Shown here piece by piece: positions 232-17,527 of a stretch of DNA of 17,527 nt. A program made the translations under genes and the position numbers. Position 1 is the first letter of the stretch, and each line of letters opens with the position of its first letter. This DNA comes from a virus. Under the pieces are notes generated by a model. That model saw nothing but the letters and a program-made list of their open reading frames with translations, was not told the origin of the DNA and did no database searches. The stretch is taken from the IMG/VR virus record IMGVR_UViG_3300045988_104385, one strand, 5' to 3'.

Positions 232-260
232 TTGACAAAAACGCTTTACCCGACTAAAGT
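232..260 (+). promoter_or_regulatory. Sigma-A type promoter in the left ITR, reading inward
   Basis: TTGACA (232-237), a 17-nt spacer, then TAAAGT (255-260). T-tracts spaced about 10-11 bp apart lie upstream (159-226), resembling an UP element or curved DNA. Confidence 0.5.
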
Positions 261-443
261 GTTAGTCCCGTCTAATTGTCTATACAATTCCACAATTATT
301 CACGTTTTCCGACCGAATCACGCACAATTCTTCTGAAATACTTACTCATTTTGCCCGAAAAGTGGACGAAACCGACCGTTTGTACGCGGGACGCGGACAC
401 TTCCGAAACGGTAACTCACTTTAGTTTGCTAAAGTGTCCGCGA

Positions 444-850
444 GTGACGGACACGGCGCGTCCGTTCCGTCCGCGCCTGCCCTCCGGTGTCGTCCGCTCC
501 GCGGACTGCCTGTTATATTATATGTGTAAATTTAGTTATCGCTTGTGATCGTACGGTTGTATGCCAGTGGCCGCCGGAGACTGTAGCGCTTCGCGCGCCA
601 TCCGGGTGACGGACACGGCGCGTCCGTTCCGTCCGCGCCTGCCCTCCGGTGTCGTCCGCTCCGCGGACTGCCTGTTATATTATATGTGTAAATTTAGTTA
701 TCGCTTGTGATCGTGCGGTTGTATGCCAGTGGCCGCCGGAGACTGTAGCGCTTCGAGCGCCATCCGGGTGACGGACACGGCGCTGCGTGTTCCGCAGGCT
801 GCCTTGCATATTATGTGTGTAACTTTTGTTACTTAGTCACACACCGCATT
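444..850. repeat. 162-bp GC-rich tandem repeat: two full copies (444-605, 606-767) plus a degenerate, internally deleted third copy (768 to about 850)
   Basis: GTGACGGACACGGCG starts at 444, 606 and 768, giving a period of 162. Copies 1 and 2 differ at two positions that I could see (gtacgg versus gtgcgg; tcgcgcgc versus tcgagcgc). Copy 3 keeps the ends of the unit but lacks about 40 nt of the GC core, and it runs past the ITR boundary at 791. Confidence 0.9.
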
Positions 851-860
851 CGATTGTTTC

Positions 861-2831: not shown

Positions 2832-2843
2832 TATTATTCCTCC

Positions 2844-3602
2844 TCAATAAAATTGATAAAACAATTCTTTGCAATCATCGCAGATACGCTTGTTAAGATT
2901 CAGGATGGTATCGCGGAATCTCTGTATTTCTAATGAGTAACTACCGTCAAAACCCTCATCTTCAATCGTATCATTATTATCTGCATGATACGTGTCATTG
3001 CTGTTGGTTTTTGTTGTATTCTCTCCATTGCTTACCGCACTGTTATGGATGGTATTCTGTCCCCGATCCATCGTAGACGCATAATTCGTTCCGGCGAAAT
3101 TAATTTGCGGATTATCAGAGTGAATATTTTGTGTATTGTTATTTGTATCGGCTGTCGTTGTGTTTTTCGCTGTGCTGTCTCCCGAGATCACACCTGTTCG
3201 TGTATCGTCTTTTGTACTTTGCACTTTTCGTGTACTCTTATGAGTAATAAGCGGGTTGTATTCAAAAGTAATACTCCGGTACAACTGCTCATAGTATGGC
3301 ATATTGATAGTAAGGATTCGTTTGAGATGATACTGAAATTCGCCGATCGTTTCCAGTCCGATCTGTTCCCGAAAATACTGTAAACAGAACGTTTTTTCGA
3401 ACGTAAGTTTTGCGGTTGCATATTCTGGAGCGGATGCATCAACATAAAACGGAAAGTCAAAATTGAAGATTAAAGGAACGGCGGTTTCGATCATCTTGTC
3501 GATCGTCTGATTTTCAAGTGGGGAAATTACGTGATCGGAAATAACCAACTGTTCAATGGTATTCGTTAACGTTTTCGTTTCGTAGTTATAGTCAAGAAAC
3601 AT
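2844..3602 (-). CDS. Lower collar protein (phi29 gp11-like)
   Basis: 252 aa, immediately downstream of the portal gene with a TAATG overlap. The motif YFREQIGLETIGEFQYHLKRILTINMPYYEQLYRS matches the conserved lower-collar pattern (YFREIG.ET.G.F...MPYYNQLY). Synteny follows the 9-10-11-12 order. Confidence 0.75.
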   Translation of the reverse strand: MFLDYNYETKTLTNTIEQLVISDHVISPLENQTIDKMIETAVPLIFNFDFPFYVDASAPEYATAKLTFEKTFCLQYFREQIGLETIGEFQYHLKRILTINMPYYEQLYRSITFEYNPLITHKSTRKVQSTKDDTRTGVISGDSTAKNTTTADTNNNTQNIHSDNPQINFAGTNYASTMDRGQNTIHNSAVSNGENTTKTNSNDTYHADNNDTIEDEGFDGSYSLEIQRFRDTILNLNKRICDDCKELFYQFY

Positions 3603-4555
3603 TATTCCACCTCACTTTCCGGTTTGCCGGTTTCCGGTGTTTTCTGTTCGCCGTTTTTTATTGTCTCAAATGCATCTGGTCGGTTAATCGGCGTTACCAT
3701 CTTAGAATTAAAACGCACATGGATATTCAAACCATACATTTCATTGATCGAATCAAGTCCCCTCTGAATGGTAGCCAGATTTCCGTTTCTTGTCAACTCG
3801 ATTTCTCCATCGTTGTAGCTCGTTTCTGCGGAAACCAACCTTTCCGGTTTTTCCACGCCGCTTGCTTCGATTCCGAGATCAGCCAGACATTCTGCTGTTT
3901 CTCTCTGTGCGGCGGTGTCAAGTTCGTTAAAGATTGGCTTTACTTTCAAGTCAATGGTATCAATCTGAATCTGTTTTCGCAGATCGTTTTTTGCTTTGAT
4001 GAAAGGAATATTTTTTACCCACTTCTGAATAAAGTTGTCAATGGATAACTTCTGCGTAGAATCCCCGCTGATGACAACCGGCGTTCTCTGCTGAATCACG
4101 TTTACCCTTGTTGACGCTTTTTTCTCCGCCAAACTCTGCGAATGCAGAATAATGCTTAGGATTTCCGGTACAGCAAAAGGTCTGGCAAAAATCAACGAAC
4201 TTTCGTTTTTGTCCGTCTGCTCATAATACTGACCATTCATAGCGTAGGCAATCCAATCGGTAGGAATCCCGTAAATATCGGGTTCGCCAACCAGATTAAC
4301 ACCAAACACGCCGAAAAGTCCGGTGATTGGCTCTTTTTTGAACAGGCACATTCCTTGCCATAACAGATAGGAGTTGAGCATCCGTGGCGGAATCTCATCC
4401 GGTAACCCGTCATACTCATACCGCGACAACGCTAGATTGACGAACTTGTCAAAAAAGTGCTTGAAATACATTTTTTCTTCCGGTGACGTATTCGGGTTGT
4501 TTTCCCATTGTCCCCACACTTCTTTGTTACTCACCCGATACGGGTTATTATACAT
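3602..4555 (-). CDS. Portal / upper collar connector (phi29 gp10-like)
   Basis: 317 aa. Segments align by eye to phi29 gp10: [24 protein letters not shown] versus [41 protein letters not shown] versus [30 protein letters not shown] versus INELYGLNVKVKF. SD AAGGAGG is present. Confidence 0.9.
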   Translation of the reverse strand: [317 protein letters not shown]

Positions 4556-4567
4556 GACATCACCTCC

Positions 4568-6145
4568 TTACTTATTGGAAAGACCATAGTTTCCAACATC
4601 ATCCGTATGCCAGAACGTCACGCCGCGGTTAAACATTGCCTGCAAAAAATTGATATCATCGGTAACACACGGCCCATGCAGGCTGCAATTAACCGTTTTG
4701 ACAAAATTCCAGTTTGACCGCCCTGTAATATTAGGTACTTTAATTTTGTGCGTTGCATATCCGTACATTGTGAAATAATCGTCGATCGTTTTCGCCATCT
4801 GAGCGGTTACACTCATCACATGACAGTAAACTTGACTGCCGAACAATGCGGCGGCAACATAACTTCCGGATGAATTTCCTTTTGCTGTTGGCGGTATCAG
4901 ATCATGGCTTTCTTTCTGCGCATTGATATTTTCATTCAGCAAATAAGTGCTAGTTACCGCGTTAAAAATACTTTCTGCGCCTGCGCCTAAATTGCCACTT
5001 AATGCTCCGACCAATCCGCCCGTGAGATTTCCAATCTGCGATATTGCATTCTGCTTTTTGGAGTAGTCCCATAACGGACTAGACTGCGCTAGAAAAGCCT
5101 GATAGCCGTCATTTGTCCATGCACACTGTGGGAAATTATTGATGGTAAAACCGTATGGGGATTTTGGCCCACCAGTACGTTTATATTCACGCGGAGTCAC
5201 AAAGATTGCAGGAATATTAAACATAACGCCATACACCTGCATGGTTAATTCTCCATTTTTACCGTATTCGAAATTAAAAGTATGCTGTATTCCCGAACCA
5301 TCGTTGACCAGACAATAACAATAGGGATACTGAAATAGTTTATTATTTTTCGGGATATAGCCGTCAAGTGCATATGGTTTAACGGTTACTTGTGTATAAG
5401 CAGATGCATCTGTCTGGAAACAGGCTTCTGGTGCTTGATATACATTAACAATCGCATCTCCGTTTCCGCTTTTGACGTACTTCTGGATAACTGTGATTAA
5501 GTCCGTATATTTTGTTTTCCGAGTAAATGTCAACCCCGATAAAATTCCCTGATTGACAATGGGTATAATATTTGTTCCGTTTTCGTCTGCACTTGCACTC
5601 AAACAATACTGCATCGGGCCGAGATTCAAAAGTTTCTGTTCGTTCGGATTGTCCACGTATTCCCCCGTTTCCAGATTTTCTGGCACTAAATTAATTCCGG
5701 CATAATCAGCTTTTTTGTCAATATGCTCCCTTTCCACATAGCACTGTTGAAGCACCACGTTGTAAAAACTGTTCTGAAAACGATCGGGTTCGAAATAAAT
5801 CTTAAAACTTCCGTCACTCAACCATTCTACCCGCGTCACAAATCCGAAATACCACTCTTCCGTATAAGGTTTATTCTGAAACGCAATATAATTGCACTTT
5901 AAAAATTCACTCTCATTCCCTTTTCCTTTATAAGTCAGTTCTCCCCATCTCACGGGCGCGGATTGCTTAAAAATATGAATTGCTTTTTCTCTTACATGAG
6001 CCAGACAGCCTGCTTTTCCGTTTTCATAATAACGCACGTGTTCATAATCGTTTCCCCACTCGATACCACTAGCCAGAATAACCTCCGTCTGCGGGGAAAC
6101 CGCCGCCACATTTTCCTGCGGCGGCATCGGAATGAAATTATCCAT
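4568..6145 (-). CDS. Tail knob / distal tube protein (phi29 gp9-like)
   Basis: 525 aa. ILASGIEWGNDYEHVRYY versus ILADVPFSNDYKNTRWF; YIAFQNKPYTEEWYFGFVTRVEW versus YIMFQNADYGNKWFYAFVTELEF; C-terminal FNRGVTFWHTDDVGNY versus FDNGITLWHTDNIGNY. Confidence 0.9.
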   Translation of the reverse strand: MDNFIPMPPQENVAAVSPQTEVILASGIEWGNDYEHVRYYENGKAGCLAHVREKAIHIFKQSAPVRWGELTYKGKGNESEFLKCNYIAFQNKPYTEEWYFGFVTRVEWLSDGSFKIYFEPDRFQNSFYNVVLQQCYVEREHIDKKADYAGINLVPENLETGEYVDNPNEQKLLNLGPMQYCLSASADENGTNIIPIVNQGILSGLTFTRKTKYTDLITVIQKYVKSGNGDAIVNVYQAPEACFQTDASAYTQVTVKPYALDGYIPKNNKLFQYPYCYCLVNDGSGIQHTFNFEYGKNGELTMQVYGVMFNIPAIFVTPREYKRTGGPKSPYGFTINNFPQCAWTNDGYQAFLAQSSPLWDYSKKQNAISQIGNLTGGLVGALSGNLGAGAESIFNAVTSTYLLNENINAQKESHDLIPPTAKGNSSGSYVAAALFGSQVYCHVMSVTAQMAKTIDDYFTMYGYATHKIKVPNITGRSNWNFVKTVNCSLHGPCVTDDINFLQAMFNRGVTFWHTDDVGNYGLSNK

Positions 6146-6161
6146 GTTTCCTCCCTCTTAC

Positions 6162-7472
6162 TTAATCTTTCGTAAAGTAAATGGTTGCAGTTTTGGAAGA
6201 ATCGAAGCGGCTGGTAATCACAACCCGCACACTTGATGTTTTGTTTACTTTCAATTGCAGATTCTTCTCATCTTTTGCGATTCGAAGAATGGTTGTGCCA
6301 GGGATTACAAACGTATCCGTAGAAGAGTTACCCTCTACTTTTACATCAATCGCTTTATCGGCTACGCCATTTGAATCAATAGAAAAACTGCCGCCGAAAT
6401 CCACGTCTGTTCCGACGTTCACCGTTCCCACGTCATGTGCGGTAATGGAAGAAACAAGAACTGACTCGGTCGTAAAGACAATGATCGGATAGAACAGGGA
6501 ATACGAAAACATCTCTTTTACCGTATACGTACTGTTCCAACGCAGTCCGCGATTAACGTTATCCTGTACCATCATACGGTACTGTTCGCGGATTTTGAAG
6601 AACCGTTTATCAACCAGTACAGCAACGATTCCCTCCGCATCGTTAAAGTTGTCGATTAACACCTGCTGTGCTTTCGGAATCATCCGGTCGAGATTGTACG
6701 CGCTTGCATAACTGTCAACGTTCATCGCGGCTTTGGTATCGGGGTCGACAAACAGAAGAATGGTATCTTCTTTTGCCGCCGATGTCGCGCCAGCGAAATT
6801 ATACAGCGGGTTCGGGAACTGAATCTTGTCGATGTAACTCTGAATCTGTTTTGCCAGTGCGTTCGCGGATGCCTGATTCGTAACCGCATCCACATGAACC
6901 GGGTAAATCTGGCCTGCGCGCTTTGCAGACGCAATCAGTTCTTTTGCAGTTGTGAACTCATCCCAGTTACAAGCGGAAACGACACTTTCCACTTTTGCCT
7001 GCACGAGACTGCGCAAACCGTAATCATCGAGAAACGCGCCGCGCATATCCTCAAACCAGATCGTCACCGGATAATCGTTGTTGAAATTGAGTACATGATA
7101 CAGCGCCATAATGTAGCTGTCATAAATGGCGGTCGCATCTTCGATGCTGATATTGGCATCGTGCGCGTAACCCTGTGCAAAGTTTACGTAGACTTCCTGT
7201 TCACCATTTCCGTATGGCATCGCATTACTGTTCAATACCCGGAGCGGATTTCGGAACGCTTCGGTACTGATCGACTGGCTGGCAATCAGATTTACCAGCG
7301 CAGGAACCAGTTCGTTCCGAGTCATCGGATTGTAAGGGTCGGTTAATGTTTTTGCAATATCGGCAATATTTTCACGAGTTGCCACAGGAACTCTGTCACG
7401 GTAGTCAACACTCATCGTCTGCCGAACGGCGTTCAGCATATTAATATTGGTCATATCTAATTTTTCTGCCAT
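6162..7472 (-). CDS. Major capsid protein (phi29 gp8-like) with C-terminal Ig-like domain
   Basis: 436 aa. [24 protein letters not shown] versus phi29 [36 protein letters not shown]...[10 protein letters not shown] versus EAVLVDKDWFMV...PRGLYWNYYY. The beta-rich C-terminal ~95 aa sits in the position of the phi29 BIG2 domain. Confidence 0.9.
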   Translation of the reverse strand: [436 protein letters not shown]

Positions 7473-7476
7473 TGTT

Positions 7477-7821
7477 TCACTCTCCTTTTCCGCTCAGAAT
7501 GAGCTGAGACATATCAAGATCGTTGATACTTGTTGCGGTTTCTTCCGATTCCGGCACTTTTCCGCCAAACTCGGTTACTTTTGTGATACTTCCGCCATGG
7601 GAAAGATCAGACCAGCGGCTTTTGATTTCAGCAACGGAGGCATCATACTTTCCTTTCAGTTCGTCCCGTTCTGCGACCAGCGCGTCACGTTCGGACATCA
7701 GTGCGCTGATGTCGGTATCTTCTGTTTTGATTTTTTCGCTGATGGCGGCGATTGCGTCACCGTGCGTTTCGATGTTTCCAATGTCGGCAACAATTTCTGT
7801 CCAATACTCTTCTAGTGTCAT
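7477..7821 (-). CDS. Scaffolding protein (gp7-like by position and composition)
   Basis: 114 aa, acidic, with a coiled-coil-like stretch (ALMSERDALVAERDELKGKYDASVAEIKS). It lies directly upstream of the capsid gene, and its TGA stop is 4 nt before the capsid ATG. Confidence 0.6.
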   Translation of the reverse strand: MTLEEYWTEIVADIGNIETHGDAIAAISEKIKTEDTDISALMSERDALVAERDELKGKYDASVAEIKSRWSDLSHGGSITKVTEFGGKVPESEETATSINDLDMSQLILSGKGE

Positions 7822-7822
7822 G

Positions 7823-8887
7823 TTAAAACCTCCTTTTTAAATTGGGATATAACCAGATCGGCATTTTATGCCGTTTTGGTTTCATGGGATGGGGCGGCTC
7901 AGGCGGCTCAGGCGGCTCTGGTTGCTCTCCTTTTGCAAAGTACCGATATACCATCACCGCGTTGTTCAAACGTTCGGAATCAGATAAATACCGATTCCCC
8001 ACAATCCATCCGGTAATTGCAGAATCTTTCGCGTGTTCCGAAATAAAATTGAAACACGCATGTGCTTTTTCCTGCCGGAACGCAAGTGTTCCATCGTCAC
8101 TAATTCCCTCCCATCCTTTCATATAGGCGGAAGTCAGTGCGTTCAGATCGGTGCTGTCACTGTGCAAAAACGCTTGTAGATTTTCGTAAGCACTAGCGGC
8201 TCCGACCGAATACCAGACATTCTCATAAATCAGATATTCTAACTGCGCGTTACCATTTTCCCGGCTGTACCCGTTGGAATCTAACCATTGGAACAACCGC
8301 GTCCGGCGGTCGGTAGAGGAATTATCTGTCCACTGACCCAATCCATAGCCGGGCGAGCCGACAATTGTTCCCTCCCATAATCCAGGATTTACGGTGGATT
8401 CCTGCCAAAAGTTTCCGCAGATGGCGGAAATGACATATTGGCTGATACCGCTTTGTACCGCAACCGGATACCTGTACAGATACGTCCAAGCGCTATAGGC
8501 AGACACAAACGTATTGATGGATACCTGTCTTTCCAGCGGGTAACTATCGGTGTGGGCCCCCATCGTATACCCGCCACCGTCTGCGGGATTGTAAACCATT
8601 TCGGTGTGACCGCTCCTCCACAAGATATCACCTTTCTTCCATGGCTGATTGGCTGTACCTTTTTGGAATCCCGCGCCGATCAGATACCCATCCATGCTTC
8701 GGGTGGTAAACCACGGGTTAGATGCTAAAAATCCGCCTACCGTACAACAATAACTCATGAGGGACGAACAATCATAGTACGTAATACCTCCTACGGTCTG
8801 CCCCTCACGATAGTCTTGTGAGTAACCCACGTTTGGATTGTTACAAATCTCGATACAGGTATTGTACGCAAGCGTCAGATCAGCCAC
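7823..8887 (-). CDS. Tail-associated peptidoglycan hydrolase (phi29 gp13-like): N-terminal NlpC/P60-type cysteine peptidase plus gp13-type lysozyme domain
   Basis: 354 aa with a GTG start overlapping the endolysin stop. The N-terminus has YYDCSSLMSY and KKGDILWRSGHTEMVY (Cys/His peptidase signature). The centre has ISAICGNFWQESTVNPGLWEG...GYGLGQWT, matching the phi29 gp13 N-terminal lysozyme ([22 protein letters not shown]...GFGLVQWT). The C-terminus is an EPP repeat followed by a basic tail. Confidence 0.8.
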   Translation of the reverse strand: MADLTLAYNTCIEICNNPNVGYSQDYREGQTVGGITYYDCSSLMSYCCTVGGFLASNPWFTTRSMDGYLIGAGFQKGTANQPWKKGDILWRSGHTEMVYNPADGGGYTMGAHTDSYPLERQVSINTFVSAYSAWTYLYRYPVAVQSGISQYVISAICGNFWQESTVNPGLWEGTIVGSPGYGLGQWTDNSSTDRRTRLFQWLDSNGYSRENGNAQLEYLIYENVWYSVGAASAYENLQAFLHSDSTDLNALTSAYMKGWEGISDDGTLAFRQEKAHACFNFISEHAKDSAITGWIVGNRYLSDSERLNNAVMVYRYFAKGEQPEPPEPPEPPHPMKPKRHKMPIWLYPNLKRRF

Positions 8888-9572
8888 GGGTCAGACCCTC
8901 TTCTGCTACATATCCGGTATAGACGATGCCATGGACAACCGCTTTCACAAGATACCATTCATTTGTATAATAACCGTAGTTTCTAACACTGGTTCCGGTT
9001 GGCAACGTCAATATGACCGTTTTATTCATTCCTGCGCCAACACGCAGATTATAGCGATCATTGGTATGATAGGATCCGGCGATTCTTCGGTCAAAACTAC
9101 GTGCGGATTCGGTTTTGATGGAGTGTTCCACAACTTTATGTGGTTTGTCGTTTTTTCCCGCATACCGATAATGCACGGTATTTTCATACGGAAGATCGTA
9201 ATAAGACCGGACGCAGATTTCCTTTCCGGTCTGATCTCCCGTCTGGCCATCAATCCCGCCGTTTTCCGACTGGCTGGCGTGGACGATGCGGTTCGCGTCA
9301 ACCGACATCGTTACATGATGGCCAGCCGCAAGGTGGATGTCACCGCGTTTCCAGGGGTTTCCGCATTTCACAAAACCAGCGTTTTCCAACTGTCCGCCGA
9401 GGTTTCTTGTTGTGCTGTAAATGCTGACAGGAAAGCCAGCGTTTGCAAGTGCCGTCCCGACAAAACTTGAACAATCATAATCGGGACTGTTCCGATGTAC
9501 CTGTGAGTACCCGTGCCGATCATCGGCGGCGATCTGTTCCGCCCATGCAACTGCGTTTTCGATTCTACTCAT
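8880..9572 (-). CDS. Endolysin: NlpC/P60-type cysteine peptidase plus C-terminal SH3b cell-wall-binding domain
   Basis: The track ORF starts at GTG 9581, but ATG 9572 has SD GGAGG 8 nt upstream, so I use 9572 (230 aa). It contains HGYSQ..YDCSSFVGT and KRGDIHLAAGHHVTMSV. The C-terminus YNLRVGAGMNKTVILTLPTGTSVRNYGYYTNEWYLVKA is SH3b-like. It follows the holin. Confidence 0.8.
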   Translation of the reverse strand: MSRIENAVAWAEQIAADDRHGYSQVHRNSPDYDCSSFVGTALANAGFPVSIYSTTRNLGGQLENAGFVKCGNPWKRGDIHLAAGHHVTMSVDANRIVHASQSENGGIDGQTGDQTGKEICVRSYYDLPYENTVHYRYAGKNDKPHKVVEHSIKTESARSFDRRIAGSYHTNDRYNLRVGAGMNKTVILTLPTGTSVRNYGYYTNEWYLVKAVVHGIVYTGYVAEEGLTRG

Positions 9573-9762
9573 TCTTTCCACCTCCTAAATGCTGGCAAAG
9601 TGAATTAATTGCGGTTGTGTTTGCTTCTACGCTTTTCCGAAGTTCTTCCATTTCTTCCTTATGCGCGTCTTTTTCTTTCACCAGATACCAAAACAGTGCG
9701 CCGCAACACACGATCGGAAAACCGAGACTTCCAATTAACTGTGTTACCATCGTTACATCCAT
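9565..9762 (-). CDS. Holin (BhlA/UviB-like, single N-terminal TM)
   Basis: 65 aa with one hydrophobic helix (VTQLIGSLGFPIVCCGALFWYLV) followed by a charged coiled tail (KEKDAHKEEMEELRK). SD AAGGAGG lies 7 nt upstream. It sits immediately upstream of, and overlaps, the endolysin gene. Confidence 0.6.
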   Translation of the reverse strand: MDVTMVTQLIGSLGFPIVCCGALFWYLVKEKDAHKEEMEELRKSVEANTTAINSLCQHLGGGKNE

Positions 9763-10043
9763 CCGTCAACCTCCTTATCCTGCCATTTCAACCAGTCCTC
9801 AATTTCACTTAATTTATCACACATGATAAAGTTATGAATGAAGCGGACGGGCGATTTACTGTTATACGCGTTGCCATCCATGAAAAAGAAATCCCACAGA
9901 TACCGGATATGAGACTCGTAATTTTCATGTGGAACAAAGATCAGCGTGTCTTTTTCGTCCCCTTTATAGCGTACCGTATAAGCAAGATAGGCATTTTCTT
10001 TTTTCATCATTCCGACAATCATATTAAAAACGATACTTGCCAT
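9753..10043 (-). CDS. Hypothetical protein (96 aa), first gene after the late promoter
   Basis: The track ORF extends to 10124, but the internal ATG at 10043 is preceded by GAAAGGAGCAAAG (a good SD). The upstream 27 codons overlap a structured leader. I recognise no motifs. Confidence 0.55.
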   Translation of the reverse strand: MASIVFNMIVGMMKKENAYLAYTVRYKGDEKDTLIFVPHENYESHIRYLWDFFFMDGNAYNSKSPVRFIHNFIMCDKLSEIEDWLKWQDKEVDGWM

Positions 10044-10153
10044 CTTTGCTCCTTTCTTCCTGTCCTTAAAACAAGGAAACCTTTTGACCTGCCAAGGACA
10101 GGGCGGTTTACTCAACCGTGGCAACCCCTTTTAAAAGGTTTCCCCGTATTTTC

Positions 10154-10182
10154 ATGATACATCTTTTGTATCCGTATGTCAA
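10154..10182 (-). promoter_or_regulatory. Late (lysis plus morphogenesis) operon promoter
   Basis: On the minus strand: TTGACA (10182-10177), a 17-nt spacer, then TATCAT (10159-10154). It lies in the 192-nt gap between the ATPase stop and the next ATG. Confidence 0.6.
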
Positions 10183-10229
10183 GTACATTTGTCCGTCTCC
10201 CCGTATGTCAAGTACATTTGTCCGTCTCC
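10172..10229. repeat. Perfect 29-bp tandem duplication carrying the -35 hexamer
   Basis: CCGTATGTCAAGTACATTTGTCCGTCTCC at 10172-10200 and again at 10201-10229. The minus strand reads GGAGACGGACAAATGTACTTGACATACGG twice. Confidence 0.9.
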
Positions 10230-10235
10230 AACGAA

Positions 10236-11375
10236 CTATTTATAAAGATCAATCCCCAAAAGCTCGAGTGCCATATTTTTGCTGTCTAAATCGTCAAAAC
10301 GCAAATATGCTTGTTGGTACGCTTCTTCTAACCGTACAAACAAATAATCATAATGATCTAGCATAACCGTGTGCTGTGTGTGGTCTCCGTCCCGAAAAAC
10401 GGCAATATACGTGCAAGACGGGTTACATTTATGTGTGATATAAATATACCCGTCTTCGTAATAGTCATACACACCATAACTTTTGCCGTTGTACTGAATG
10501 GTGAACAGATACCGCGACCGTCCGGTCGGTTTCTGGACAAAAACAGCATCATCAATCAACATACGGTCACCAACGCTCATGCTTTGCATATAGTGACCGT
10601 CACGGAATGCTTTCAGTGCCGGATTTTCCCACATCGCCTTACTAGCACTGTCATTGTGGGTAAATTCACACACATAACCGCTCCCATGCATCATTTTTGT
10701 ATCTTTCTGATATCGTTTATGGATGCCGAAAAATACAAAATAGGGATTGAGTAACGATATATTATTGGATGCCATAATCAGTTTAAACCACCTTGACTGA
10801 TTTCCGTTTCCACGGCTAATCGTAATCAACAACGACTGCATGATTTCAGATTCCCCTTTTACGTACTTTCCGCTTTCCGTGCAAAACTCGTCAAAAAGCA
10901 AAAAGTAGATATCCCGAAAATACGGAGACAATTTTTTTACACTGTCCATCTTACTTCCAAAACTAAACGCGCATCCGAATGGCACACCGTCCAGAAAATA
11001 ACGCACGACATTTCCGTTTTTGTCCAGATTTTTATAGGTAATCACACTTCCTAATTTAGGATACATGCTTAGCATATCTTCGTACATTGCCGCCGCTCCC
11101 GTCATTTCCCCTTTCGTCCGGAAAATCCATCCGGTCTGTAATCCGTACTCTTTGCACAATATACAGCTTGCCGCGGAGAACGCACTTGTCTTTCCGGCGC
11201 TACGGTTGGAACACGTAATTGCTACGCCAGCGAAATCCCCGTCCACGTCCGGCTCTGAAAACAACCGAATCGGATTGTAATACTGAATCGCTTTCCCGTT
11301 ATCGTCTACCGCTTCAAATTTCACATCATATTCAGAAAAAAGTTTTTCCCATGGAATATCGTTCCAAAAAATCAT
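10236..11375 (-). CDS. DNA encapsidation (packaging) ATPase, phi29 gp16-like
   Basis: 379 aa. Walker A is SNRSAGKTS and Walker B is YFLLFDEF. ASNNISLLNPYFVFFGI aligns with phi29 LSNAVSVVNPYFLFFNL, and C-terminal QQAYLRFDDLDSKNMALELL with NGYLRFDNQVIRNIAYELF. It has about 27 extra N-terminal residues relative to gp16. Confidence 0.92.
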   Translation of the reverse strand: MIFWNDIPWEKLFSEYDVKFEAVDDNGKAIQYYNPIRLFSEPDVDGDFAGVAITCSNRSAGKTSAFSAASCILCKEYGLQTGWIFRTKGEMTGAAAMYEDMLSMYPKLGSVITYKNLDKNGNVVRYFLDGVPFGCAFSFGSKMDSVKKLSPYFRDIYFLLFDEFCTESGKYVKGESEIMQSLLITISRGNGNQSRWFKLIMASNNISLLNPYFVFFGIHKRYQKDTKMMHGSGYVCEFTHNDSASKAMWENPALKAFRDGHYMQSMSVGDRMLIDDAVFVQKPTGRSRYLFTIQYNGKSYGVYDYYEDGYIYITHKCNPSCTYIAVFRDGDHTQHTVMLDHYDYLFVRLEEAYQQAYLRFDDLDSKNMALELLGIDLYK

Positions 11376-11391
11376 TGTTTCACGTGAAACA
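11376..11391. promoter_or_regulatory. Perfect 16-bp palindrome TGTTTCACGTGAAACA abutting the ATPase start codon (operator-like site, copy 1)
   Basis: Read directly from the sequence; it lies 1 nt from the ATG at 11375. An extra half-site GTTTCACG is at 11397-11404. The same 19-mer recurs at 14766-14784. Confidence 0.55.
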
Positions 11392-11431
11392 TTTTTGTTT
11401 CACGCCCTCCTTTCTATCATCCCGCTCCGCG

Positions 11432-11451
11432 TCCCCGCCAGTTCCCCGCCA
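11432..11451. repeat. Two direct repeats TCCCCGCCA with 11-bp phasing
   Basis: TCCCCGCCA at 11432-11440 and 11443-11451 (minus strand TGGCGGGGA twice). Confidence 0.6.
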
Positions 11452-11466
11452 GCAAAACCGCAGACA

Positions 11467-11496
11467 ATCTCACGTTTATCGCACGATGATCGCACG
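11467..11496. repeat. Three direct repeats ATC(T/G)CACG with 11-bp phasing
   Basis: ATCTCACG at 11467, ATCGCACG at 11478 and ATCGCACG at 11489. They share the CACG half of the CACGTG palindrome core. Confidence 0.6.
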
Positions 11497-11542
11497 TTTT
11501 GACTGCGGATGGACGGCGGGTAAGGGCAGATTCGCTAGATGT

Positions 11543-11575
11543 AAAAAAGAGATACGTTTTATAGCGTATCTCTCT
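11543..11575 (-). terminator. Rho-independent terminator ending the replication-gene transcription unit
   Basis: Minus strand: AGAGATACG, loop CTATAAAA, CGTATCTCT, then TTTTT. This is a 9-bp perfect stem (11565-11573 pairing with 11548-11556) followed by a T5 run. Confidence 0.7.
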
Positions 11576-11691
11576 TTACACGTATGGAGTTTTTTCAAAA
11601 ATACACAAGATACAGTAACAATCAACTACAGGTAACTTATCATACTCAAGTCTACCGTCCGCCAGTCGGAGCGCGTATTAACGTCATATAT

Positions 11692-12111
11692 TTAAGCAAA
11701 CGGATTAAATTTTTTTAGTTCGCCGAATTTATGGACGTTTACGGCGGAAAGGTAAGCGGTAAAACCCTTGTCGCGGCGGAACTTGCTTTCTCCGATGGAG
11801 ATGAAGAGGTCAACAACTGCGCCTTTACCGAGTTCGTCAACGCTGGAAACGGTGTCGCTCTCAATTCCGTCCTCATAAAAGGCAACGCGGTAACTTGTCT
11901 GCGCTTTTACGTAAAGACCAGATTCGTCACTTTCTTTCGCCGGAATCCACTTTGCTTCCGCGGCGGCATCATTACCGAACTCTTCGATAATTTTTTCAAA
12001 GATGGCTTTCTGCTGATCTTCTGTGATCGAAGCAGAAAGAACGCTTTTTCCGTCCTCTTCCCTTGCATATTTTACAGTTACGTTGTTCAGTTTCATTTTT
12101 GCTTTACTCAT
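11692..12111 (-). CDS. Putative single-stranded DNA-binding protein (OB-fold, gp2.5/DUF2815-like pattern)
   Basis: 139 aa in the replication module with SD AAAGGAGAG. The pattern GAVVDLFISIGESKF..DKGFTAYLSAVNV resembles the C-terminal beta strands of T7 gp2.5-type SSBs. The call rests on pattern and position only. Confidence 0.35.
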   Translation of the reverse strand: MSKAKMKLNNVTVKYAREEDGKSVLSASITEDQQKAIFEKIIEEFGNDAAAEAKWIPAKESDESGLYVKAQTSYRVAFYEDGIESDTVSSVDELGKGAVVDLFISIGESKFRRDKGFTAYLSAVNVHKFGELKKFNPFA

Positions 12112-12218
12112 GATTTTCTCTCCTTTTTGCTTTAATTTGTTTTTACTATGCAGAACCGCGGCGCTTTGCTTTGATCATTGTCTTATCTGGTCACTTCCAG
12201 ACCGCGGTTGTGCGCTGA

Positions 12219-12455
12219 TTAATCGTCCAGTCTCTTTGCTTCGGCAAAGAACTGTTCGTCCGGCATCTCGTAGCGGGCGGATACGGTATCGGTTAATACA
12301 CAGATGAAATCCTCCGGAAAACCAGCGGCGGCAACAGCGGCGGTTTTTGCTTTCTGCGTTTTCAGTTCTTCTGTATTCTCAAAAGAGCCGATCACCTGTT
12401 TTGTGTTTCTGTCAATAACAGAGTAGATAAATTTTTCGATTTTTGTTCTAACCAT
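12219..12455 (-). CDS. Hypothetical protein (78 aa)
   Basis: Clean ORF with an A/G-rich SD region, directly downstream of a strong promoter. I recognise no motifs. Confidence 0.55.
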   Translation of the reverse strand: MVRTKIEKFIYSVIDRNTKQVIGSFENTEELKTQKAKTAAVAAAGFPEDFICVLTDTVSARYEMPDEQFFAEAKRLDD

Positions 12456-12500
12456 TTTTCTTTTCCTTTCTTTATGTGGTTATTTGTTCTTATAAGTATT

Positions 12501-12529
12501 ATAATAGCACTGTTCTATCAGAAAGTCAA
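12501..12529 (-). promoter_or_regulatory. Sigma-A promoter with extended -10
   Basis: Minus strand: AAAAAGTA TTGACT (12529-12524), a 17-nt spacer ending in TGc, then TATTAT (12506-12501) followed by AATA. It lies in an AT-rich gap upstream of the 78-aa gene. Confidence 0.65.
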
Positions 12530-12535
12530 TACTTT

Positions 12536-12658
12536 TTAAATAAGAAAAAGAAAAAATATATCCAAACATAAAAGCAGAATAGCAAGGTCTATTTCCTCTT
12601 CATGAAAAGCACAGATCGTTGCGATTAAAAGTAACATAAAAAAGATAAAAAATCTCAT
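12536..12658 (-). CDS. Small hydrophobic peptide (40 aa), below the ORF-track size cutoff
   Basis: My hand translation gives MRFFIFFMLLLIATICAFHEEEIDLAILLLCLDIFFLFLI. SD GGAGAA overlaps the polymerase stop codon, 6 nt before the ATG. Two hydrophobic segments flank an acidic HEEEID turn. Confidence 0.4.
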   Translation of the reverse strand: MRFFIFFMLLLIATICAFHEEEIDLAILLLCLDIFFLFLI

Positions 12659-12667
12659 TTTATTCTC

Positions 12668-14827
12668 CTATTCCGGTAACACTCCGTCTTGAGAGTTTAC
12701 CAATACTTCATAGTATTCATTCGATACACCTAAGGTATAAGTGGTATCAAGGATTCCAATATTACTTGCAGTTAAAATTTCTTCCCCGTTGACGTTGATG
12801 TAATGGGGTTTGGTGTTATGAAAGCAACTGATCGTTCGTCCGACATTTTCCATTCTGCGGCAGAGACGGAAATTATTACAGCACTTTATATTTTCCGCGC
12901 CTAATTTTTTGTTCATGCCAGCGACCGTAGACGTAAAACGCACGGGGTCTTTGCCGGATTCGGCAGCTTTTTTGTCCCATTCCACGCCGCAGTATTTTTT
13001 CGCGCCTAACGTCTTAAACTGGACATACAGATCATCCATATCCCATACGCCGAGAATGTAGCGTTTCTCCCCAACGTCACAAAATGCTGGAATATCATTA
13101 GCAATCGCACGTTTTTCCAGTATTTTGTTTTTGGCTTCAAATTCTGGAATGTGTACGTCCGGATGTAAAAACTTGATACTATCGGTATCGCAGTACACGG
13201 CATCCATTCCAACAACATCCAGCATATCTTGTAACTGTTTTCTAGCATGGGCGGTAACATAGATACCCCACTGGTAGTGCAAAAAACTGTTTTTTCCCTC
13301 ATAGTACGTTTTCAGTGCTTTTTCCGCATCTGCTTTTTCCCGATGCCATTCTCCCGTAAAAGCATCCATTGCCCATTCGTCATGTAAAAGATCTGTCACG
13401 CACATACCGAATGTGCTGTTCAATTTATTCTTAGATTTCATATACTCATAGACTTTATCGGGATTTCCTTTTAACTGGCTTTTTGCGATAAAAAATGACA
13501 TCATCGTTTTACGCATACTTTCCGGTAATTTTCCGCGCGCGGCTACGTAGCACTCCGAGACGGTAAAGAAATCATAGTCGTATTGATTTTTTATGATCGA
13601 CAAGTCAATTTCCGTCATTGCTATTTCACAGCAATTAATAGAGAGTACGCGCCCATTATCAATCTCACAATCTTTCCCGTGCTTCTGACACTTTGACAGC
13701 GGGATATACGGGACGGGGATATTTTCTTTCATACGCAAGTTGTCAAATTGTACCCGCATAATAACACAGCGGGTAGCACACAAGTTGTCAAACTGTTCCT
13801 GCGATGTGACCGCAACCGCCCGAAACGCACTCATGGGATAATACTCCGTTGCAATCTGCGCCGGATAACTACTCGAAATATCCATACTTCCCATAACGAT
13901 CACAGATTCACCTTTTTTCGCTGTGATCGTGTGCCCCGCGTGAATGCGGTTGGCGTGGGTATTGCCGCCACGGAACGCGTCTTTGCAAAGCTGGTACTGC
14001 GGTAACGTCAAAGCCAGATCGGCAAATACTCCCGGATAATAACCGCTATCTGCCTGCATGGCACGGCGGAATTCTCGGCGGACGTAGCCAGTTGAGGTAA
14101 GGGGGATTTCTGCTAGATTATCCTCTTTTCGTAAGGCGCGGATGCATTCACACAAGCCGCGAACATCGTTATAGCAGTATCCTTGCTCTATTTCTGTTAG
14201 TGGTGTGGTTGGGGTACGTAGTTTTTTATAGTCATAAGTATCAACCAGTTTATAGTGGGTTACACCCTCACTGTTCTCGCAAAATTTCGAAAGGCTCATA
14301 TTGCTGAGAAAATACGAGCAACGAAATTCAATCCCATACTTGTAAGCGTAGCACTTCATAACTTTATGCGCGTCACGCGCAAAGATCTCATCAAATTCTA
14401 TAAAATCTTTCATGAATTGAAATTCGTAGGAAAGATTATGAACGTACACTACAGCACGCTTTGAATCGGAAGTCTGCAAATACAGATGCAGTTTTTCGCA
14501 GAATGAAAGAAACTCATTCCATGTGCGACCGAAACACACGGTATCTTTGATACAAAACTGCCATTGATACAGAAAGGCAGTTCCTTTCACCACTTTTTCG
14601 CCTGTTTTATGATAGCGTTCATAATCAAGTTTTTCTAACGTAGTTGTTTCGATGTCGAACGACATTTCCACGTCATAATAAACGATAGGATTTTTCTTTC
14701 TTCCGCTTTTGCGGCATTCGCGCAAAGTCTGGAAATCAGAAAATGGAAAATCATTAACGGAATAAATTGTTTCACGTGAAACATCTTCGTTTCCGTTTAC
14801 GATAACAGGGATATCCAATTGATACAT
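12668..14827 (-). CDS. Protein-primed family-B DNA polymerase
   Basis: 719 aa. Exo I is FDIETTT, Exo II is VHNLSYEFQF and Exo III is YCYNDVRGL. Motif A is DISSSYPAQI (phi29 DVNSLYPAQM), motif B is KSKNKLNSTFG (K..NS.YG), motif C is VYCDTDSIKF (phi29 IYCDTDSIH), and the KxY motif is GAKKYCG. Confidence 0.97.
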   Translation of the reverse strand: MYQLDIPVIVNGNEDVSRETIYSVNDFPFSDFQTLRECRKSGRKKNPIVYYDVEMSFDIETTTLEKLDYERYHKTGEKVVKGTAFLYQWQFCIKDTVCFGRTWNEFLSFCEKLHLYLQTSDSKRAVVYVHNLSYEFQFMKDFIEFDEIFARDAHKVMKCYAYKYGIEFRCSYFLSNMSLSKFCENSEGVTHYKLVDTYDYKKLRTPTTPLTEIEQGYCYNDVRGLCECIRALRKEDNLAEIPLTSTGYVRREFRRAMQADSGYYPGVFADLALTLPQYQLCKDAFRGGNTHANRIHAGHTITAKKGESVIVMGSMDISSSYPAQIATEYYPMSAFRAVAVTSQEQFDNLCATRCVIMRVQFDNLRMKENIPVPYIPLSKCQKHGKDCEIDNGRVLSINCCEIAMTEIDLSIIKNQYDYDFFTVSECYVAARGKLPESMRKTMMSFFIAKSQLKGNPDKVYEYMKSKNKLNSTFGMCVTDLLHDEWAMDAFTGEWHREKADAEKALKTYYEGKNSFLHYQWGIYVTAHARKQLQDMLDVVGMDAVYCDTDSIKFLHPDVHIPEFEAKNKILEKRAIANDIPAFCDVGEKRYILGVWDMDDLYVQFKTLGAKKYCGVEWDKKAAESGKDPVRFTSTVAGMNKKLGAENIKCCNNFRLCRRMENVGRTISCFHNTKPHYINVNGEEILTASNIGILDTTYTLGVSNEYYEVLVNSQDGVLPE
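14768..14783. promoter_or_regulatory. Second copy of the 16-bp palindrome TGTTTCACGTGAAACA, inside the polymerase 5' coding region
   Basis: Read directly; it encodes residues VSRET of the polymerase. The exact shared 19-mer ATTGTTTCACGTGAAACAT spans 14766-14784 and 11374-11392. Confidence 0.5.
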
Positions 14828-14837
14828 TGATATTACC

Positions 14838-15416
14838 TCACTTTAATTTAGTTCTATTCTTATTAAAAAGTTCTTCCTCCGTAATATATCCATCAAGAAA
14901 TTCCTCATACTCTTCCAGAATATCTTCGAATTCAATTCCGCTATCATGTAATTTCAAAATAAAATCATCAATAAGCTGATCGGATGCCACCTGCTTTCTC
15001 AGATTCTTTTTGTATATATTAGAGGTAAGAAAACGATACAGGTCTTTGTAGTTATCTTCTGTTACTTCTACATCAATTTTATTCTTTGACTTGTCAAAGC
15101 GTCTCTGTAATTCTGCGATTCGATATCCCTCAAGCGTTGTTTCGGGTGAATTCAGAAAAGCGATCATGGTATCCCATTCTTGCCGAATGGATGCATCCGG
15201 CCGCTTTACGCCTTTCAAAAAGCGATCTTTTGATCGCCCTTGTGACGCAAAAAACTCTTTTACGCGCCCGTACTCCCACTGGTCGCGCGCGTGAATTTTT
15301 TCCAGTTTGGCAAGGCGGCTATTCGCCGCCTGCGCAACACGTGGAAGTTCGCGTTTGATCTGGTCAAGGGATAAGTCAAGTTCTTGATAGATGCTGTAGT
15401 CTTTTGAGTTCGGCAT
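14838..15416 (-). CDS. Putative terminal (priming) protein
   Basis: 192 aa, 10 nt upstream of the polymerase gene on the same strand (the phi29 gene 3/gene 2 arrangement). The N-terminal half is basic and the C-terminal region strongly acidic (DDFILKLHDSGIEFEDILEEYEEFLDGYITEEELF). I could not confirm sequence homology by eye. Confidence 0.45.
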   Translation of the reverse strand: MPNSKDYSIYQELDLSLDQIKRELPRVAQAANSRLAKLEKIHARDQWEYGRVKEFFASQGRSKDRFLKGVKRPDASIRQEWDTMIAFLNSPETTLEGYRIAELQRRFDKSKNKIDVEVTEDNYKDLYRFLTSNIYKKNLRKQVASDQLIDDFILKLHDSGIEFEDILEEYEEFLDGYITEEELFNKNRTKLK

Positions 15417-15419
15417 TAT

Positions 15420-15623
15420 TCACACCCCCATTATAAAGATTCGCAATTTATCAGAAATAATCTCGAAACCTATTACTTCTTCTGACAAATAATTTTCTTT
15501 TTTTGTAGTATATACTTTTTTACAATCAATATCAAAATTTCTAACTAATACGCGATGCTTTTCATTAAACACCGTAACAATGGCGTAAATTTCGACTTCT
15601 ACGCGAACACGGCCGTAATACAA
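15420..15623 (-). CDS. Hypothetical early protein (67 aa from a TTG start); the start is uncertain
   Basis: The track ORF begins at TTG 15623 with no SD. A perfect SD (AAGGAGG) plus GTG at 15648 lies 25 nt upstream in another frame; see findings. Confidence 0.4.
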   Translation of the reverse strand: MYYGRVRVEVEIYAIVTVFNEKHRVLVRNFDIDCKKVYTTKKENYLSEEVIGFEIISDKLRIFIMGV

Positions 15624-15660
15624 TTTTTATAAAATCTTCTACTCTCACTGTGATACCTCC

Positions 15661-16011
15661 TTAATAGAAGCAATCTTCATTTTCTCCATCTGACGTATAC
15701 AGAGGGCACAACGTGCAGTTATCATTTGCAGAACAGATAACGCTATGCGGAACTTCTACATAATACGCTTTCAACGCGTAACGTGTAGAAATATTGTTAT
15801 GCAAGTTTACAGTAAATCCCACACCAAAATTACCTTTGTACGGAACTAGTACACATAATGCATCCTTCTTAACATAGCCATTAGTAAGAGACGCATGGTC
15901 ATACACGTAAATATGGATATTCCCAGCAGTATCTTCCTGTTTTACATATAAGGGGATCTCATCAAGTTTCGCTGGTAAGGTATACAGTTTCTCTAAATCT
16001 ACTACTTTCAT
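15661..16011 (-). CDS. Hypothetical early protein (116 aa) with a Cys-rich C-terminus
   Basis: SD AAAGGA lies 6 nt upstream of the ATG. The C-terminus CSANDNCTLCPLYTSDGENEDC contains four Cys residues. I recognise no family. Confidence 0.55.
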   Translation of the reverse strand: MKVVDLEKLYTLPAKLDEIPLYVKQEDTAGNIHIYVYDHASLTNGYVKKDALCVLVPYKGNFGVGFTVNLHNNISTRYALKAYYVEVPHSVICSANDNCTLCPLYTSDGENEDCFY

Positions 16012-16058
16012 GGTAGTTCCTTTCTCCCCGTAGTACCGATAGGTCAGTGTGTTATTTA

Positions 16059-16250
16059 TTATATAAGGTCAAAAGTTTCCTTGTCGAATCTAACATATCC
16101 ATCCTCATATGCCAATTCATAATATTCTTTGCACTCGCGGCAAGAATACGTCTTAGTATACGGGCCTTTAAAAACTACATATTTTTCGCCACTACCATCA
16201 TCTGAATCCAAACATAATACGTCCCCCGTTACACTGAATCCCGGATTCAT
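16059..16250 (-). CDS. Hypothetical early protein (63 aa); the start is uncertain
   Basis: ORF with one CxxC (CRECK). The annotated ATG lacks an SD. An SD-equipped ATG lies 63 nt upstream in the same frame, separated by a single TGA; see findings. Confidence 0.5.
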   Translation of the reverse strand: MNPGFSVTGDVLCLDSDDGSGEKYVVFKGPYTKTYSCRECKEYYELAYEDGYVRFDKETFDLI

Positions 16251-16337
16251 CTTTTCAAAAAAATCTTTCTCATCCTTTGATCATTCGTTTTTTATAAGCA
16301 TAATTTTAATCATTGTGAGTTCCTCCATTTTTTAATG

Positions 16338-16616
16338 CTATCTATTGCAAGACATCTTGTAAGTAGCAAATATTTCCGGTCTAAGATCTGAGTAGTAATA
16401 AAAAGCATCTTCCGAAAAATATTCTCCATTTACTATTTCTATTCCATTTTCATAGATGGAAAAGAAAATTTCACTATTTTCTTTCATAGCTTGTGAACAG
16501 AAAGTTTTTACTAATCCATTTGCTGTTAATAATGACTCAACTTTATATCTGATAATCTCTTTTCCATATTTTGTTACTACAACTTCATAGCCACTTTGTC
16601 TCTTAATTTCTTTCAT
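16338..16616 (-). CDS. Hypothetical early protein (92 aa), the first gene of the early operon
   Basis: The track ORF starts at 16631, but ATG 16616 has SD GGAGGA 7 nt upstream, giving MKEIKRQ... I recognise no motifs. Confidence 0.55.
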   Translation of the reverse strand: MKEIKRQSGYEVVVTKYGKEIIRYKVESLLTANGLVKTFCSQAMKENSEIFFSIYENGIEIVNGEYFSEDAFYYYSDLRPEIFATYKMSCNR

Positions 16617-16669
16617 TTTTGTTTCCTCCATTTTCTATTTGTATGATTGGTTTCCTTGTTTCTGATATT

Positions 16670-16698
16670 ACAATACCACTTTCCTAGAAAAATATCAA
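16670..16698 (-). promoter_or_regulatory. Early promoter with extended -10, just inside the right ITR boundary
   Basis: Minus strand: AAAAAAGTA TTGATA (16698-16693), a 17-nt spacer ending in TGg, then TATTGT (16675-16670) followed by AATA. Its architecture is nearly the same as the promoter at 12501-12529. Confidence 0.6.
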
Positions 16699-16736
16699 TA
16701 CTTTTTTCTAGCATAAACTATTTAATATTACAAATA

Positions 16737-17084
16737 AACACGCAGCGCCGTGTCCGTCACCCGGATGGCGCTCGAAGCGCTACAGTCTCCGGCGGCCACT
16801 GGCATACAACCGCACGATCACAAGCGATAACTAAATTTACACATATAATATAACAGGCAGTCCGCGGAGCGGACGACACCGGAGGGCAGGCGCGGACGGA
16901 ACGGACGCGCCGTGTCCGTCACCCGGATGGCGCGCGAAGCGCTACAGTCTCCGGCGGCCACTGGCATACAACCGTACGATCACAAGCGATAACTAAATTT
17001 ACACATATAATATAACAGGCAGTCCGCGGAGCGGACGACACCGGAGGGCAGGCGCGGACGGAACGGACGCGCCGTGTCCGTCAC
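16737..17084. repeat. Mirror of the 162-bp tandem repeat in the right ITR (16923-17084, 16761-16922, plus 24 nt of a third copy)
   Basis: Reverse complement of 444-791. The array is cut off at the ITR boundary, after which a unique AT-rich promoter region follows. Confidence 0.9.
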
Positions 17085-17267
17085 TCGCGGACACTTTAGC
17101 AAACTAAAGTGAGTTACCGTTTCGGAAGTGTCCGCGTCCCGCGTACAAACGGTCGGTTTCGTCCACTTTTCGGGCAAAATGAGTAAGTATTTCAGAAGAA
17201 TTGTGCGTGATTCGGTCGGAAAACGTGAATAATTGTGGAATTGTATAGACAATTAGACGGGACTAAC

Positions 17268-17296
17268 ACTTTAGTCGGGTAAAGCGTTTTTGTCAA
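17268..17296 (-). promoter_or_regulatory. Mirror copy of the ITR promoter, reading inward toward the early genes
   Basis: Reverse complement of 232-260. On the minus strand it points toward the early gene block. Confidence 0.5.
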
Positions 17297-17377
17297 GTTG
17301 GAAAAATGCATAAAAATTTCGGGCATATGTGTTTGAAAAAGTATTGAAAAATGAACAAATGCAAACAAATACATTGC

Positions 17378-17412
17378 AAAAGCGGTGTCTTTCTCTCGCG
17401 GACACCGCTTTT
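17378..17412. terminator. Mirror copy of the ITR bidirectional terminator-like hairpin
   Basis: Reverse complement of 116-150, within the right ITR. Confidence 0.6.
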
Positions 17413-17481
17413 GTTGTGCAATGTGCTGTCCGCCGTACGCGGACAAAATTGGGAAAATGTCCGCGTGGGACGGACTATATA

Positions 17482-17527
17482 CTGTCTCTTATACACATCT
17501 CCGAGCCCACGAGACTACGCTGCATCT
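17482..17527. other. Illumina Nextera adapter remnant (mirror copy)
   Basis: CTGTCTCTTATACACATCTCCGAGCCCACGAGAC followed by TACGCTGCATCT is the reverse complement of positions 1-46. Confidence 0.95.

Follow-up and report, generated by a model that had tools for sequence, protein, structure and literature searches.

A repeated palindrome in an uncultured phi29-like phage genome matches the consensus parS site of chromosomal ParB

The closest described system is that of phage phi29, a protein-primed podovirus. The relevant passage of PMC2731898 (citing Meijer et al. 2005) states that its genome 'contains five parS sites', refers to evidence that host Spo0J segregates the phi29 genome into the prespore, and describes the lytic cycle as meanwhile suppressed through Spo0A boxes. 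This parS/Spo0J account is restated in bioRxiv 10.1101/2024.05.22.595388. During sporulation, Spo0J-parS and Soj, together with the polar proteins DivIVA-MinJ-MinD-ComN and with RacA, capture the origin region in the prespore (PMC4949633), and excerpts of the ParB literature describe spreading from parS as dependent on cytidine triphosphate (CTP). The palindrome TGTTTCAC-GTGAAACA is printed as the consensus parS site (bioRxiv 10.1101/724823); this 16-mer is contained in 27 papers, of which the 15 listed deal predominantly with ParB-parS. Here, we describe two perfect copies of this palindrome in an uncultured phi29-like phage, IMG/VR virus record IMGVR_UViG_3300045988_104385, one at the start of the gene for the DNA packaging ATPase and the other inside the 5′ end of the DNA polymerase gene. 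By the window we mean the whole stretch of DNA analysed, 17,527 nucleotides in length. The motif and its use by phi29 were already known; the core of our finding is the identification, and what it adds is the extension to an uncultured clade.

The features concerned are as follows.

11376-11391, no strand: putative parS site 1, TGTTTCACGTGAAACA, 16/16 to consensus parS, between the Shine-Dalgarno sequence (SD) and the ATG of the packaging ATPase gene
14768-14783, no strand: putative parS site 2, TGTTTCACGTGAAACA, inside the 5′ end of the DNA polymerase open reading frame (ORF), at its nucleotides 45-60, codons D15-T20 (D V S R E T)
11396-11404, CGTGAAACA on the minus strand: extra putative parS half-site, upstream of site 1 by 4 nt in coding-strand sense, which repeats the right half of that site in direct orientation
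11406-11411, minus strand: SD of the ATPase gene, AGGAGG, 30 nt from the ATG
10236-11375, minus strand: phi29 gp16-type DNA packaging ATPase, 379 amino acids (PF05894, E = 1.8e-25), whose ATG (11375-11373) abuts the palindrome
12668-14827, minus strand: protein-primed family-B DNA polymerase, 719 amino acids (phrog_1907 DNA polymerase, E = 1e-49)

A sequence-only reading of this DNA had pointed out that a 19-mer occurs twice, at the ATPase start and in the 5′ end of the polymerase gene, and this is confirmed: ATTGTTTCACGTGAAACAT is present in two exact copies on the plus strand, at 11374-11392 and 14766-14784, each holding the perfect 16-bp palindrome. It was also right that both copies lie within about 45 nt of a start codon and that such a recurrence is unlikely to arise by chance. 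When up to 3 mismatches to the 19-mer were allowed, the observed match count was reached in 0 of 200 dinucleotide-preserving shuffles (expected 0.03), and the 2 exact 16-mer sites compare with an expectation of ~0.00-0.07. The extra half-site that it had noticed near site 1 is real as well, with 5 copies of the 9-mer where 0.25 are expected. Along the coding strand, the leader of the ATPase gene reads AGGAGG-G-CGTGAAACA-AAAA-TGTTTCACGTGAAACA-ATG, and the gap between SD and ATG is 30 nt because of the insertion of half-site and parS. The sequence-only reading had matched the sequence to no operator consensus that it knew. At both sites the core agrees with the parS consensus, TGTTNCACGTGAAACA / TGTTTCACGTGAAACA, at every position, a match that had gone unrecognised.

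By its sequence, therefore, the repeated palindrome is a consensus parS centromere site of chromosomal ParB/Spo0J. Domain and profile searches of the window ORFs detected no ParB, helix-turn-helix or other DNA-binding domain in any ORF scanned; with no ParB gene in the phage, the sites would depend on a host ParB for their recognition. Such a protein is near-universal in Bacillota. We consider it very probable that host ParB binds both putative sites. Most probably the palindrome acts in cis at the level of the whole genome, as the site of a host protein, rather than serving the ATPase and polymerase genes as their own operator or roadblock; the position of site 1 between SD and ATG is probably incidental to a role in partition.

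Conservation was followed in 22 IMG/VR relatives whose ATPase is 88-97% identical to that of the window. These were recovered through protein searches; blastn of the ATPase-polymerase region against GenBank phages gave no match. A scan of related genomes for the 16-mer, as the sequence-only reading had suggested, found site 1 to be exact in 20/22 relatives, the exceptions being L002 and L021. In the ATPase leader of L002 (~5530-5555) exactly one 20-nt unit has been deleted between the 9-bp direct repeats CGTGAAACA...CGTGAAACA, leaving an SD-10 nt-ATG arrangement, and in L021 (~5630-5660) an unrelated leader, GAAAGGATGAGGGAACATG, stands in place of site 1. The polymerase genes of these two genomes are 96.7% and 90.8% nucleotide-identical to that of the window, respectively, and both genomes are nested among parS-bearing ones. 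Therefore, site 1 has been lost twice and is dispensable for viability. Their polymerase copies are also mismatched in the left arm (GGTTTC.. and AGTATC..).

Among 21 distinct polymerase genes, 14 have an exact site 2, including those of genomes that are only 77-82% identical over a 300-nt segment around the polymerase start. At third-codon positions within the site (n = 5) the mean pairwise identity is 0.91, against a gene mean of 0.70 (rank 23/715), and the N-terminal region of the polymerase around it is otherwise variable. The variants that do occur (GGTTTC.., TATTTC.., TGTATC.., AGTATC.. and ..CAAGTG..) are single-sided and uncompensated. One relative, L008, is without the polymerase copy and has a 2-mismatch site elsewhere (GGTTTCACATGAAACA at L008:530).

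The two copies resemble each other beyond the palindrome. On the coding strand, 11364-11391 and 14756-14783 are alike at 26/28 nt (GAAAC-AAAAA-TGTTTCACGTGAAACAAT and GAAAC-GAAGA-TGTTTCACGTGAAACAAT), so that both include a partial third arm (GAAAC). Moreover, with respect to the ORF that follows, the two copies are in one and the same frame (..VSRET-I.. and ..VSRET-M..), with similar downstream residues (xNDxPx). The simplest account of the likeness is that one site arose from the other by duplication, or that gene conversion took place between them. An old segmental duplication of ~55 nt was considered as the whole explanation and rejected, since it leaves unexplained both the match to consensus parS and the recurrence of the motif in unrelated phages. 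A longer ATPase, starting in frame at an upstream GTG as seen in some relatives, was also considered and rejected, because in the window and its closest relatives this frame is broken by a difference in loop length (AAA/AAAA).

The 16-mer is widespread. Exact copies were found in >120 IMG/VR stretches with a contig GC content of 30% to 72%, many of them carrying 2-5 copies. Its spread across such contigs argues for the site of a universally conserved host protein rather than a phage-specific operator. By tblastn with the window proteins, 27 of these stretches are phi29-like, of which about 23 are distant (ATPase 24-34% and polymerase 30-44% identity). Many of the distant contigs hold 2-4 exact sites, often as tandem pairs, which lie inside the polymerase gene, just 3′ or 5′ of the ATPase gene, or between the capsid and tail-knob genes. 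The proposal of a site for a dimeric DNA-binding protein was right in kind; a gene-specific operator or roadblock is not supported, as the positions of exact parS vary in this way. In unrelated viral contigs, 18/163 exact sites have a further full or half site within 40 nt, where ~1.5 are expected, and the extra half-site of the window fits this clustering habit. Three other IMG/VR contigs of 50-54% GC (L043 2657-3444, L083 10535-11462 and L095 240-961) carry 3-5 exact parS in about 0.7-0.9 kb of apparently non-coding DNA; they have no tblastn match to the window proteins and resemble the centromere arrays that a plasmid-like or phage-plasmid element would carry.

We then counted parS, defined as a site with at most 2 mismatches, in 21 cultured phi29-like genomes, for which ~0.00-0.02 sites are expected per genome (estimated on the first nine). 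The endospore-forming hosts were Bacillus, Cytobacillus, the C. innocuum group, Hungatella and C. perfringens.

Phages of endospore-formers with parS (number of sites): phi29 (4), B103 (2), Nf (2), Bfsp1 (1), CI130P1 (1), CI55P1 (1), CH17P1 (1), HM2 (2), DCp1 (1), phiCPV4 (7)
Phages of endospore-formers without parS: GA-1, WhyPhy, Aurora
Phages of non-spore-formers, all without parS: Cp-1, Av-1, LE1-1, RHph_N3_8, Prophecy, Mendel, BadAztec2, Evcara

Thus, parS is present in 10/13 phages of endospore-formers versus 0/8 phages of non-spore-formers (one-sided Fisher p = 286/352716, about 0.0008, by hand arithmetic and not corrected for phylogeny). Several non-sporulating hosts have ParB-parS themselves, among them S. 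pneumoniae, Actinomyces, Bifidobacterium, Arthrobacter and others, yet their phages are without parS; therefore, a benefit linked to sporulation is favoured over a general benefit of partition. Two of the cultured genomes carry further details. The Clostridium phage phiCPV4 (L159) has 7 parS, three of them exact and most in intergenic tandem pairs (6109-6149, 8009, 10087-10127 and 13120-13161), one pair being about 20 nt upstream of the ATPase start; its record annotates a SpoVG-like protein, a further link to sporulation. In the Cytobacillus phage Bfsp1 (L160) there is a single parS, with 1 mismatch, and an FtsK-like 'cell division protein' is annotated in the record. Our literature searches found no report of parS in phi29-like phages of Clostridia, and a 2024 review of about 2000 phi29-like genomes makes no mention of parS, Spo0J, ParB or spores.

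Taken together, we estimate a probability of roughly 0.78 that the sites are parS read by host ParB, through which the phage genome would use host segregation, probably so as to be carried into spores. We hypothesise that a ParB dimer would nucleate on each parS site, close as a CTP-dependent clamp and slide along the DNA that flanks the site. As the two sites are separated by 3.4 kb in a linear genome of 17.4 kb, most of the genome would be coated by ParB, and the resulting partition complex would make the phage DNA behave like the origin region of the host. In a sporulating cell, polar capture of the ParB-coated region would bring it into the forespore. The genome of a virulent phage would thus be trapped in the spore and could return to lytic growth once the spore germinates, as has been described for phi29. 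Our own scan of phi29 (EU771092) found five sites, four of the form TGTTTCACGTGGAACA with 1 mismatch and one with 3 mismatches, most of them inside genes. By analogy with this phage, spore entrapment seems somewhat more likely than not to be what the sites serve.

As to the host, the hints point to Clostridia. The nearest cultured relatives by major capsid protein (about 27% identity) are gut Clostridia phages, with hosts in the C. innocuum group and Hungatella. Against GTDB contigs, the endolysin gave two weak matches only (38-40%), on contigs of metagenome-assembled genomes of Clostridia/Oscillospiraceae. A search of the endolysin against a set of 5.8 billion proteins returned 599 matches, and the contigs bearing homologues are all <=17 kb, the phage never being seen integrated. 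The clade comprises hundreds of protein clusters, on contigs that are all phage-sized. An exact-protein look-up found one Logan run, SRR4305456.

Several observations weigh against spore entrapment through host ParB. The Spo0A box (TGTCGAA), which in the phi29 strategy stands at early and late promoters, is not enriched, with 2 occurrences against 3.1 expected and none at obvious promoters. Both boxes are inside ORFs, at 14653 in the polymerase gene and at 16082 in a small ORF, and in an alignment inspected by eye the former is absent from several relatives. The loss of site 1 in L002 and L021 shows that the phage can do without it, which fits an accessory role but fits weak selection as well. 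Likewise, parS is not obligatory, given that GA-1, WhyPhy and Aurora infect spore-formers and are without it. The ATPase had no match in GTDB genome contigs, and no close relative of the phage was found in GTDB genomes. Lastly, the census is small, its lineages are non-independent and it is confounded with GC content and phylum, such that the association of parS with spore-formers is suggestive.

Host ParB may also bind these sites to an end other than spore entrapment. Plasmid-like partition of the linear genome in a carrier state (pseudolysogeny), recruitment of ParB or SMC for the organisation of replicating phage DNA, titration of host ParB and damping of late (packaging) gene expression by ParB at the site in the ATPase leader would all draw on the same sequence evidence. 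Such roles are consistent with the lack of Spo0A-box enrichment. Site 1 coincides with the region where translation of the first late-operon gene is initiated, with the tandem parS of phiCPV4 placed at a similar locus. Against this, none of the 8 phages of non-sporulating hosts carries parS, although it is generally known that several such hosts have ParB-parS, and in phi29, the only case studied experimentally, the outcome is spore entrapment. We regard these roles as unlikely. We find it hardly credible that the palindrome is instead an operator or roadblock for a dimeric regulator encoded by the phage, a small early protein that would repress polymerase and packaging ATPase. A perfect palindrome near two gene starts would suit such a regulator, and several small early ORFs are without recognisable function; however, no helix-turn-helix or DNA-binding domain was detected in the phage ORFs, and the same 16-mer recurs in phages with unrelated early genes and a GC content of 28% to 72%, which fits a universally conserved host protein.

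The motif could also act as RNA, with an mRNA hairpin controlling translation of the ATPase and the polymerase, either as the operator of an RNA-binding protein or as a bridge across a split SD-AUG. Translational control by a UGUUUC-ACGU-GAAACA hairpin touching the ATPase AUG had been put forward in the sequence-only reading. The leader does fold better than shuffles (-14.3 kcal/mol, z = -2.9; in a second run -12.9 kcal/mol, z = -3.5), the SD and the AUG, separated by 30 nt, have a hairpin exactly between them that would give an effective spacing of 8 nt, and a 6-codon mini-ORF, MFHVKQ*, ends in ATGA and overlaps the ATPase start. However, the minimum-free-energy structure of the window leader is a 10-bp hairpin that pairs the upstream half-site (arm1) with the left half of site 1 (arm2) and not the palindrome hairpin, whereas the polymerase copy folds as the palindrome hairpin, and no RNA structure is common to the two. 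Variants of arm1 (L004, L018 and L022) have a weaker or switched fold without compensation, the variants of the polymerase copy (L002, L004, L006, L012/13 and L021) are equally uncompensated, and the deletion in L002 leaves an ordinary SD-10 nt-ATG. Moreover, the same 16-mer occurs in unrelated phages at positions away from translation initiation and in both orientations of context, the sequence is a known DNA-protein site, and it has no Rfam match. Given the different folds, the uncompensated variants and the double loss of site 1, the proposed translational hairpin is not supported, and we judge an RNA element to be highly improbable. The predicted arm1:arm2 hairpin, by bringing SD and AUG to an effective 8 nt, may be what makes the 20-21-nt insertion tolerable, and the mini-ORF ending in ATGA offers another route to tolerating it. 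Accordingly, we regard the DNA motif as what is under selection and an effect on translation, if there is one, as secondary.

The remainder of the window is that of a phi29-like podovirus, with all substantial ORFs on the minus strand. Further genes encode a phi29-type major capsid protein (about 25-28% identical to that of cultured relatives), a tail knob, a connector, a collar and two lysins. An exact inverted terminal repeat of 791 nt occupies positions 1-791 and 16737-17527. Both window ends open with AGATGCAGCGTA followed by GTCTCGTGGGCTCGGAGATGTGTATAAGAGACAG, at 1-46 and 17482-17527, which we take to be Nextera transposase adapter. This adapter contamination marks the physical ends of a linear genome, whose true extent is about 47-17481 with an inverted terminal repeat of about 745 bp. 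The repeat and the adapter at both ends show that the linear genome, about 17.4 kb in length, is complete. A repeat of ~745 bp is long for a phi29-like phage and could in part be an assembly effect. In the neighbourhood of the terminal repeat, a third, degenerate parS-like sequence with 3 mismatches, ATTTTCACATGAAACA, lies at 1041-1056 inside a gene for a 656-amino-acid appendage protein with a GDSL-lipase domain.

Upstream of the ATPase SD, a conserved non-coding block (11412-11545, minus strand) stands out with 60% GC in a genome of 42% GC. It folds as a single long hairpin (-54.5 kcal/mol, z = -2.8), and its sequence is kept in all relatives, with lineage-specific insertions. Covariation in the block is weak (term -0.28) and it has no Rfam match; an Rfam E-value scan of the whole window gave 0 matches. 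The block may serve as a structured 5′ leader or, alternatively, as the packaging RNA needed by phi29-like phages. On its other side, downstream of a 139-amino-acid ORF, is a terminator-like hairpin with a T-run at about 11541-11577 (minus strand), which a simple terminator scan had missed. Its stem, GAGAGATACG..CGTATCTC in the window, is replaced by GAGAGCTACG..CGTAGCTC in relatives, a difference of two compensatory pairs, and in the covariation analysis of the conserved block the compensatory pairs upstream of the ATPase are confined to this terminator stem. By eye, a conserved promoter-like TTGATT-N16-TGTGTATTTT can be seen just upstream of the terminator hairpin, in the odd order of promoter before terminator; it was not listed by the promoter scan. 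The promoter and terminator scan showed no convincing sigma-70 promoter adjoining site 1.

If parS does follow endospore-forming hosts across the phi29-like phages, hitch-hiking in spores through host ParB would be a general route of persistence and transmission for 'strictly virulent' gut phages. Such phages could survive oxygen, ethanol and person-to-person transit inside the spores of their hosts, and they would be co-transferred by spore-based isolation and by faecal-transplant preparations. Moreover, parS could serve as a cheap genomic marker that predicts a spore-forming host. The phage described here belongs to an abundant uncultured phi29-like clade, with its nearest cultured relatives on gut Clostridia, and it carries two perfect parS and no ParB. 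We put forward only tentatively, as rather less than an even chance, that perfect host-type parS is a recurrent, repeatedly acquired hallmark of phi29-like phages of endospore-forming Bacillota, including abundant uncultured clades. A practical lesson is that perfect palindromes in phage genomes should be checked against the centromere and nucleoid-protein sites of the host before they are called operators.

Known systems resemble this locus to differing degrees. In T4, the split ribosome-binding sites of genes 38 and 25 are bridged by a hairpin. The ATPase leader of the window is similar in having SD and AUG 30 nt apart with a predicted 10-bp hairpin between them and an effective spacing of about 8 nt, but here the hairpin appears to be a by-product of half-parS plus parS, shows no compensatory change and is dispensable, as in L002. 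P1 parS/ParB and the sop-type centromeres of N15 likewise place centromere repeats for ParB-family proteins on an extrachromosomal replicon; these elements have their own ParA and ParB and their own centromere sequences, whereas the window phage encodes neither protein and would use the chromosomal consensus of its host. As for the chromosomal parS/ParB (Spo0J) system itself, the 16 bp of the window are the idealised consensus used in structural and biochemical work on ParB, and in both settings sites and half-sites cluster. In contrast to that system, the window sites are on a 17-kb genome of lytic type, not near a chromosomal origin, and have no adjacent parAB. With phi29 there are differences in detail. 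The window has two perfect-consensus sites where phi29 has five, each with at least 1 mismatch; its genes are all on one strand, with the ATPase as the first gene after the replication module; and it has no Spo0A-box enrichment. Nevertheless, both are protein-primed podoviruses without a ParB gene that carry several 16-mers of chromosomal parS type, some of them inside coding regions. Moreover, both place parS next to the gene-16 ATPase, the phi29 site starting 1 nt after the ATPase stop and the window site abutting the ATPase start.

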